From a virus: a stretch of 35,555 nucleotides of DNA. Position 1 is the first letter of the stretch, and every line of letters starts with the position of its first letter. A model generated the notes under the pieces. The model was not told the DNA's origin. It ran no database searches and saw only the letters and a list, made by a program, of their open reading frames with translations. Below are positions 4,833-5,913 of this stretch, piece by piece. The stretch is taken from IMG/VR virus record IMGVR_UViG_3300048583_000185, positions 1-35,555 of that record; one strand, written 5' to 3'. The position numbers and the translations under genes are program-made.

Positions 4833-4857
4833 GTGTGGTTCCGAAGCGTGGAGATGT

Positions 4858-5913
4858 ATGAATGAGTTGGCTCTTTTCGCAGGCGCTGGTGGCGGAATAC
4901 TCGCAGGCCACATGCTGGGCTGGCGCACCGTCTGCGCAGTTGAGCGTGATGCCTACGCCGCACAAGTTCTGGCGCAACGACAGAACGATGGAGCCCTCCG
5001 ACCATTCCCGATTTGGGCTGACGTGTGCGGCTTTGACGGAAGACCGTGGCGCGGACTTGTTGACGTGGTTTCGGGGGGCTTCCCTTGCCAAGACATCAGC
5101 GTTGCCGGCAAGGGCGCCGGCATTGACGGAGAGCGCAGCGGCATGTGGAGCCACATGGCGCGGATCATTGGCGAAGTTCGACCCCGCTTCTGCTTCGTGG
5201 AGAACAGCCCAGCCCTCGTTACTCGGGGACTCGGAAGAGTGCTCGGTGACCTGGCCGCGCTCGGGTATGACTGCCGGTGGACTGTGCTGGGAGCTGCCGA
5301 CGTTGGCGCCCCCCACCAGCGCGACAGGTTCTGGCTTGTGGGTGCCGACACCCTGCGCGACCGATGCGAAGCCGATCACGGGCGGGAACCTTTACGTGAC
5401 GGAAACGGGCACGGTGCGACACATGCGGCCGGATGGCAAGAGCAGCAACCGGGGCCTTGCAGCGAGTGCGGCCATGTGGCCGACACCCACCAGCAGCCTG
5501 GGCACGAACGGCGGCCGTGTGACGCCTGCCAAGGCTCTGGAAGGCGGGACGCTGATAGAGGCGCTGAGTGCGCGGACCACTTGGCCGACGCCGACCGTAT
5601 GCGACAACTACAACCGCAAGGGAGCCAGCGCGACCAGCGGGGACGGGCTTGCCACTGCGGTGCTGAAGTTTCCGACGCCTTCGACGCTTGGCATCAATGG
5701 CGGCAGTCATTCTCAAGCGGCGGCAGTGAAGCGCGGCCAGGCGGTGACGGAAGTCAATGGTGGCTCGCTGAACCCGACGTGGGTCGAGTGGCTAATGGGG
5801 TGGCCTATCGGGTGGACCGACTTAAGGCACTCGGAAACGGACAGGTGCCCCGATGCGCAGCCACAGCCTGGCGAATGCTCACTGGTGGCATGAGCGACAC
5901 GCATAACGGCTGA
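4858..5913 (+). CDS. dcm: DNA (cytosine-5) methyltransferase, 351 aa (frame A)
   Basis: Motif I LFAGAGGG, motif IV GGFPCQDIS, motif VI FVENSPAL, motif VIII APHQRDRFWLVG, C-terminal motif X RLKALGNGQVP. GGAG at 4850-4853. The middle third (Arg/Asp/Gly/His-rich) looks poor in this frame. Confidence 0.7.
   Translation: MNELALFAGAGGGILAGHMLGWRTVCAVERDAYAAQVLAQRQNDGALRPFPIWADVCGFDGRPWRGLVDVVSGGFPCQDISVAGKGAGIDGERSGMWSHMARIIGEVRPRFCFVENSPALVTRGLGRVLGDLAALGYDCRWTVLGAADVGAPHQRDRFWLVGADTLRDRCEADHGREPLRDGNGHGATHAAGWQEQQPGPCSECGHVADTHQQPGHERRPCDACQGSGRRDADRGAECADHLADADRMRQLQPQGSQRDQRGRACHCGAEVSDAFDAWHQWRQSFSSGGSEARPGGDGSQWWLAEPDVGRVANGVAYRVDRLKALGNGQVPRCAATAWRMLTGGMSDTHNG
4862..5893 (+). CDS. Overlapping same-strand ORF in the +1 frame of dcm, 343 aa, with WPTPT repeats and a C-terminal LNPTWVEWLMGWPIGWT motif
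   Basis: ATG lies 8 nt after the same GGAG. Balanced composition throughout. Repeated (W/F)PTP(T/S) units. I recognise the C-terminal motif from phage methylase-associated proteins. It is unclear whether it is translated. Confidence 0.4.
   Translation: MSWLFSQALVAEYSQATCWAGAPSAQLSVMPTPHKFWRNDRTMEPSDHSRFGLTCAALTEDRGADLLTWFRGASLAKTSALPARAPALTESAAACGATWRGSLAKFDPASASWRTAQPSLLGDSEECSVTWPRSGMTAGGLCWELPTLAPPTSATGSGLWVPTPCATDAKPITGGNLYVTETGTVRHMRPDGKSSNRGLAASAAMWPTPTSSLGTNGGRVTPAKALEGGTLIEALSARTTWPTPTVCDNYNRKGASATSGDGLATAVLKFPTPSTLGINGGSHSQAAAVKRGQAVTEVNGGSLNPTWVEWLMGWPIGWTDLRHSETDRCPDAQPQPGECSLVA

Follow-up and report, generated by a model that had tools for sequence, protein, structure and literature searches.

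Two co-extensive reading frames behind one ribosome-binding site in a phage integron cassette: a probable two-subunit cytosine-5 DNA methyltransferase

Two start codons that lie four nucleotides (nt) apart behind a single Shine-Dalgarno sequence raise the question of whether a phage methyltransferase locus encodes one protein or two. The locus lies in a window of 35,555 nt (the whole stretch of DNA that was analysed, positions 1 to 35,555 of IMG/VR record IMGVR_UViG_3300048583_000185), which is a complete 35.5-kb phage genome, and the gene is an orphan methyltransferase carried in an integron cassette. The two starts, ATG 4858 (frame A) and ATG 4862 (frame B, the +1 frame), begin open reading frames (ORFs) of 351 and 343 codons that occupy the same bases and are open throughout, whilst the third frame over the gene has 21 stops. 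A preliminary description of the locus had given the positions of the Shine-Dalgarno sequence and both ORFs, which were borne out by re-reading the sequence, and all the motifs which it listed for the two frames were found. It left three explanations standing: a genuine dual-coding gene, one real frame per segment joined by frameshifting, or one frame as a preserved shadow of the other. Dual coding fits best, as both frames are open in nearly all relatives at any guanine plus cytosine (GC) content and the start of B is selected. As judged from sequence comparison, the gene most likely makes the catalytic and the DNA-recognition subunits of one cytosine methyltransferase, and we consider it probable that these two polypeptides, alpha from frame A and beta from frame B, assemble into a single C5 enzyme.

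The window alone makes only a modest case. In 500 synonymous-codon shuffles of the window sequence (GC 0.65), 1.5 frame-B stops were expected over the catalytic segment (P(0) = 0.09) and 4.2 frame-A stops over the middle of the gene (P(0) = 0.006). Open alternative frames are cheap at 65% GC, and the double ORF, being modestly improbable here, is by itself suggestive; the decisive evidence comes from homologues.

Two sets of homologous loci were collected: 80 viral loci fetched via frame-B patterns, and therefore unbiased for the middle of A, and 80 loci from bacterial genomes fetched via frame-A patterns only, and therefore unbiased for B. The bacterial loci span the Pseudomonadota, Verrucomicrobiota, Actinomycetota, Saccharibacteria, Bacteroidota, Campylobacterota, Planctomycetota, Fibrobacterota and Acidobacteriota, and with both sets taken together, which cover at least nine phyla and GC contents of 0.46-0.69, the two frames are open in about 150 loci. 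No B stop was found in the 158-codon catalytic segment in 70 of 71 A-selected loci, where shuffles predict 6.1 such loci; the shuffle expectation for this segment is 2.2 B stops per locus and the third frame averages 7.8. Conversely, the middle of A is free of stops in all 59 B-selected loci examined (59/59), against an expected 3.75 stops per locus. At protein identities of 40-60%, synonymous sites have turned over many times. Searches of Acinetobacter phage ABMM1 with tblastn find one and the same place with A (E 9e-78) or B (E 6e-57), and in this phage (GC 0.50), as in Microcystis phage Mel-JY01 (GC 0.47), both frames are open from end to end. The comparison of homologues proposed with the preliminary description could have left one frame only, but A and B stay open together in nearly all relatives.

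These figures bear directly on the suggestion that chance or a high GC content has preserved one frame as a shadow without function, or that the locus is a pseudogene with two compensating indels. Long alternative ORFs are indeed common at the GC content of the window, and for the window alone the chance of a stop-free B over the catalytic segment is still 0.09. However, the double ORF persists at GC 0.46-0.52, where the third frame has 20-33 stops, it recurs across the phyla listed above, and the synonymous choice that makes the ATG of B is fixed. The shadow option of the preliminary description was rejected on a further ground, namely that A is without motif IX and a conserved target-recognition region, and B supplies them; we regard this explanation as extremely unlikely.

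A division of labour between the frames is suggested by the family and structure assignments, for which profile hidden Markov models and structure predictions were run on both translations. The catalytic motifs of C5 methyltransferases (I, IV, VI and VIII) are all on the A chain. Pfam PF00145 matches residues 4-164 of A only, with 108 bits against a cut-off of 22, whilst TIGR00675 reaches 83 bits on frame A, below its cut-off of 100.65; phrog_363 matches A with E 2e-66. The AlphaFold2 model of A has block means of the predicted local distance difference test (pLDDT) of about 48-93, mostly above 64, over residues 1-175 and a helix at residues 316-342 (pLDDT about 81), with residues 185-267 below 40; it resembles the large domain of M.HhaI, M.HaeIII and DNMT1 (Foldseek E 8e-10, about 166 columns). 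The layout is not that of a single-chain C5 enzyme, as A has motif X (LGNGQVP) but neither motif IX nor a conserved variable region.

Frame B matches phrog_1008, which is annotated as "DNA methyltransferase" (E 2e-33), and no match was found in Pfam, NCBIfam or PDB sequence searches. About 7000 predicted protein homologues of B were present in a metagenome collection; those with a source name are called "hypothetical protein" and none of them carries a Pfam domain. When aligned with hhalign, the C-terminal motif of B falls onto motif IX (FPEWMMGWPAGWVT) of the single-chain protein gp72 of Mycobacterium phage Tweety (85.8%), and 242 columns of B align with the frame of gene 33 of Streptomyces phage Lilbooboo (99.2%, E 2e-19), in which motif X (IGNGVVP) follows in-frame and where frame A stops after motif VIII. 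B thus supplies exactly what A lacks. It could still be argued from the missing family match and the lack of a confident fold that the real protein encoded by B has a role outside methylation, perhaps as an anti-defence factor or regulator, with alpha acting alone or with another partner. However, alpha is without motif IX and the conserved variable region, B carries exactly those parts, and in single-chain enzymes their homologues are the PTP region and motif IX, so that we think an unrelated role very unlikely.

A division of this kind has been shown biochemically for one E. coli enzyme. M.EcoHK31I from E. coli HK31 (recognising YGGCCR) is a heterodimeric C5 methyltransferase (Lee, Kam and Shaw, 1995, via PMC2836561 and PMC3404938), in which alpha has motifs I-VIII as well as X and beta, lying wholly inside the alpha gene in another frame, has motif IX (PMC2836561). 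Association of the chains is required for activity, and it depends on the first ~42 residues of beta (PMC2836561; PMC3404938). Compared via these published descriptions, the architecture of the present locus shares an alpha ORF with motifs I-VIII and X but no IX, together with an alternative-frame beta that carries motif IX. Unlike the beta of M.EcoHK31I, however, the beta here is co-extensive with alpha (343 and 351 codons), starting at +4 nt behind a shared Shine-Dalgarno sequence, and the conserved PTP-repeat variable region is on beta, whereas the literature puts the target-recognition domain of M.EcoHK31I on alpha. It is also an orphan gene in a phage integron cassette and not part of a restriction-modification pair. 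Neither the M.EcoHK31I sequence nor a named homologue of it was found in plasmids and E. coli genomes, and literature searches on the motif strings and on methyltransferase genes that overlap or are overprinted turned up the descriptions of M.EcoHK31I alone.

In 69 A-selected loci B begins with ATG 56 times and with GTG eight times (64/69 kept). The A codon which creates this start encodes Asn, His or Tyr (NAY) and is T-ending in 61/61 cases; amongst the other NAY codons of these segments the proportion is 33%. Of the same 69 loci, 55 have ATG, GTG or TTG as the start of A itself, 4 nt upstream, and 51 have an SD-like motif upstream. The MSWL(F/I)SxAL N-terminus of B also persists in three loci (L021, L067 and L075) where it does not overlap motif I of A. 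Comparison of these loci thus indicates that the start codon of B is under selection.

This evidence has to be set against the idea that beta is a short nested protein of about 150-200 residues made from an internal start, with ATG 4862 and the first ~100 B codons not functionally translated. In the A-selected sample, no B-specific invariant residue is seen before about residue 130 (TWPRSGM), B opens about 55 codons into A in Lacticaseibacillus phage R9.1 and phage C72C1, there are thousands of predicted B-type proteins of 160-250 amino acids (aa), and the beta of M.EcoHK31I is itself nested within the alpha gene (PMC2836561). However, an internal start would require neither the conserved start at +4 nt, with every synonymous choice in its favour, nor the near-complete lack of B stops over the whole catalytic segment, nor the persistence of the MSWL(F/I)SxAL N-terminus where there is no overlap with motif I, and we consider an internal start rather unlikely.

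Several further features of the start region were seen. A third ATG at 4854 begins a mini-ORF of three codons in the third frame (ATG TAT GAA TGA, window positions 4854-4865), the TGA of which overlaps the ATG of beta (A-TGA), and a frame-B TGA at 4859-4861 directly precedes the same ATG. The ATGAATG double start is also found in Acinetobacter phage ABMM1, where the TGA equivalent to the latter is the stop of the upstream gene and would permit translational coupling to both starts. Mel-JY01 has TTAAATG at this position, so that A begins further upstream. In L021 (601-700), L067 and L075 beta has about 13 extra N-terminal codons (MSWLISxALMxxxANSxS...), and motif I of alpha and its likely ATG lie downstream of the start of beta, which thus begins before alpha.

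The frame that is constrained was found to alternate along the gene. Differences per site were counted by codon position in 229 sequence pairs of 75-97% identity, and are given here in the order A2 (=B1), A3 (=B2) and next A1 (=B3). Over motifs I-VIII they were 0.051, 0.217 and 0.112, the pattern of a gene coding in A; over the middle 0.336, 0.315 and 0.57, and over motif IX 0.059, 0.054 and 0.17, both patterns of B coding; and over the tail with motif X 0.139, 0.29 and 0.216, which is again A coding. The consensus of A over the middle has a majority residue at just two or three positions, whilst the B consensus there shows the PTP modules. Amongst 56 fourfold columns of A in 60 sequences (mean third-position entropy 1.38 bits) the entropy is zero only at P132 and G135 of B. 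The preliminary description had called B well balanced along its whole length; in fact its first ~100 residues are open but weakly constrained, and look kept open rather than tightly specified. Apparent conservation of L9, V10, D40 and W113 in the B-selected sample had mostly vanished in the A-selected sample and was put down to selection bias, with the exception of P132 and G135.

The preliminary description had also pointed out that the same bases encode the motif of B and a region of A, and B motif IX LNPTWVEWLMGWPIGWTD (5768-5821) does sit over AEPDVGRVANGVAYRVD of A (5767-5817). A true double function, motif IX in B and a stretch preceding motif X in A, was considered and dropped, as B dominates the codon-position differences. 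The third codon position of A is the most conserved in this segment, so that the EPDVGRVANGV of A would be mostly a by-product of B; the same is probably true of EPxVGRVADGV in A.

The middle of beta (5342-5761) is built of xPTPx modules, for example WPTPTVCGNYNRKGASATSGDGLATAV, ATPTARDWRSGKAS... and FPTPSTLGINGGSHS..., the number and order of which vary among otherwise close homologues as if they had been shuffled by recombination. Every such module must also be stop-free in frame A.

The constrained segments thus run A, B, B, A in the canonical order of motifs I-VIII, target-recognition region, IX and X, and some relatives, such as Tweety gp72, have this order within a single frame. It might therefore be thought that a single chain is made by two recodings, beginning in A, shifting +1 into B after motif VIII and returning by -1 to A after motif IX. 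On reading the window sequence, of which no systematic scan was made, neither junction (5340 and 5820) showed a canonical slippery heptamer. Two efficient frameshifts in one gene would to our knowledge be unprecedented. Nor does the locus resemble a programmed frameshift, as A and B are each open over their full length and the latter has a conserved start of its own; recoding would need neither an open B with a conserved ATG 160 codons upstream nor an open A through the middle. Moreover, M.EcoHK31I functions as two chains (PMC2836561). The preliminary description was thus right in that each segment has a dominant frame, but frameshifting is neither needed nor favoured because the ORFs are open end to end, the B start is conserved and there is a proven precedent for two polypeptides in M.EcoHK31I (PMC2836561). 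We hold the single recoded chain to be highly improbable.

The two-subunit reading would work as follows. Ribosomes recruited by the one Shine-Dalgarno sequence would start at either ATG 4858 (A) or ATG 4862 (B) of a single mRNA. Alpha would form the catalytic large domain, with motifs I-VIII, a long unconstrained linker and a motif X helix that folds back on the catalytic domain, and A would be kept open through the middle because motif X must share a chain with motifs I-VIII. Beta would consist, in this order, of a loosely constrained N-terminal stretch, the variable xPTPx modules (the likely target-recognition region) and motif IX, the latter two corresponding to the small domain; B would be kept open over the catalytic segment because its translation starts at the shared ribosome-binding site. 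The two chains would associate into one active enzyme, as do those of M.EcoHK31I. We infer that both proteins are produced, that they bind one another and that both are needed for methylation. Beta may in that case be an exchangeable specificity subunit, in which shuffled xPTPx modules set the target, with the 130-residue linker of alpha a mere open spacer; this appears more likely than dual initiation combined with double recoding, in which ribosomes would change frame twice, into B after motif VIII and back into A after motif IX, besides or instead of making separate chains, and to which we attach a very low probability.

Several findings weigh against this reading and should be considered with it. 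An A stop is present in the linker or middle of four relatives (L014, L121, L147 and L164) and a B stop in two (L081 and L151), and L078 differs by one base at LNPT/WVEW, which swaps its frames. The loci share ancestry, so that combined P-values overstate their independence. The first ~100 residues of B have little constraint of their own in the A-selected sample, and beta might start further inside. B alone also models poorly (AlphaFold2 with a 57-sequence alignment; mean pLDDT 53.9, predicted template modelling score (pTM) 0.28), and Foldseek with this low-confidence model gave no fold match. In L151 the stop is a TGA which replaces the conserved W or S codon of the TWPR(W/S)G motif of beta; the oddities of L151 and L078 may be sequencing errors or mark decaying copies.

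Other known systems resemble the locus in part. M.AquI (CYCGRG) is a two-subunit C5 methyltransferase (PMC3404938), and has in common with it a natural split in the variable region and two subunits that form one active enzyme. However, M.AquI divides into I-VIII and IX-X, an order also seen in Lilbooboo and phiBT1, whereas motif X stays on alpha in the window. Tweety gp72 has homologous catalytic motifs, an LLPTPSA-type element, the motif IX to which B was aligned and a motif X (IGNGVVPQQ), but has all these elements in one frame, with several stops across the catalytic domain in its +1 frame. Under a low-complexity part of the annotated gp72 (L088:232-1344) the +1 frame does contain a B-like stretch (SGMTRSG...LLPTPRA...LMPTPTT), which may be a relic or a third arrangement. 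The overlap of Rz1 in lambda is short, about 60 codons, whereas in the present locus it extends over about 340 codons, with products that are parts of a single ancestral enzyme. The likeness between the present locus and Rz/Rz1 lies in a second gene in another frame, the product of which cooperates with that of the first and which is often missed by gene callers (PMC11445585).

If both frames are translated, this would rank with the longest conserved overlaps of same-strand genes that are known from viruses of prokaryotes, extending over about 1 kb and essentially 100% of both genes, with products that are halves of one enzyme. The layout is proven for M.EcoHK31I and is seldom annotated, and there is a gap in annotation in that gene callers retain one frame. 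The ~7000 B-type predictions indicate that B is often chosen over A, and thousands of beta proteins are consequently left as "hypothetical" without a Pfam family, whilst alpha ORFs are labelled as complete methyltransferases or, in phiBT1, as "may be inactive". In methylome work, prediction of specificity for such phage enzymes would need the beta frame. As constraint alternates between the frames, the family is also a natural system for the study of two-frame co-evolution. The features of the locus are collected in the table.

Table. Features of the overlapping methyltransferase frames (positions in the window)
Feature	Position	Strand	Remarks
Shine-Dalgarno GGAG	4850-4853	+	Serves both starts; 4 nt before the ATG of A, 8 nt before that of B
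Frame A ORF, putative alpha (catalytic) subunit	4858-5913	+	351 codons, stop 5911-5913; motifs I, IV, VI, VIII, X
Frame B ORF (+1 frame), putative beta subunit	4862-5893	+	343 codons, stop 5891-5893
Frame B make-up	4862-5893	+	Weakly constrained N-terminal part, TWPRSGM motif, four xPTPx modules, motif IX
Segment N	4858-5343	+	A constrained (motifs I-VIII); B stays stop-free
A motif I, FAGAGGG	4876-4896	+	
A motif IV, GGFPCQDIS	5074-5100	+	
A motif VI, ENSPAL	5200-5217	+	
B motif TWPRSGMTAGG	5249-5281	+	Sole place in segment N with B-specific invariant residues (P132 and G135)
A motif VIII, HQRDRFWLVG	5314-5343	+	
Segment M	5342-5761	+	B constrained (xPTPx at 5342, 5477, 5582, 5669); A an open, unconserved linker, predicted disordered
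B VPTPC	5342-5356	+	
B WPTPT units	5477 and 5582	+	
B FPTPS	5669-5683	+	
Motif IX segment	5768-5821	+	B LNPTWVEWLMGWPIGWTD; EPDVGRVANGVAYRVD of A on those bases probably largely a by-product
A motif X, RLKALGNGQVP	5818-5850	+	
Motif X and C-terminal helix, RLKALGNGQVPRCAATAWRML...	5818-5910	+	Frame A; the A3 > A1 > A2 pattern returns

With regard to the cassette, the crossover point remarked upon in the preliminary description (5906/5907) was confirmed to fall in the penultimate codon of A (AAC, 5905-5907). Only the Asn-Gly of alpha and its stop lie at or beyond this point, and B terminates within the cassette.

Variant arrangements were seen in a number of relatives. In Streptomyces phages Lilbooboo (L005:999-2055) and phiBT1 (L004:1032-2100) frame A ends right after motif VIII, at 166 aa, and the +1 frame bears motif X in addition to the B-type region and motif IX; if the +1 product is made, phiBT1 gp9.1 is probably mislabelled as "DNA methylase may be inactive". 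Burkholderia phage phi1026b gp68 (L087:202-1503) is annotated as a 434-aa "DNA methyltransferase" with a junk-like middle; a stop-free +1 ORF of about 430 codons, missing from the annotation, overlaps it, starts at GTGAATG and has WATP/WPTP modules and LNPAFACWLMGWPTWWT. In L067 an HNH endonuclease-like ORF (CEHCG...HHIDRD...CVDCH; L067:1500-1983) is inserted in the third frame in the 3' end of the gene; EPDVGRVAD is closely followed by the stop of frame A, and the motif X unit RVALGVTARVDRLKAIGNGQVP recurs downstream of the insert in frame B. From its sequence, the insert looks like a free-standing homing endonuclease that splits the gene.

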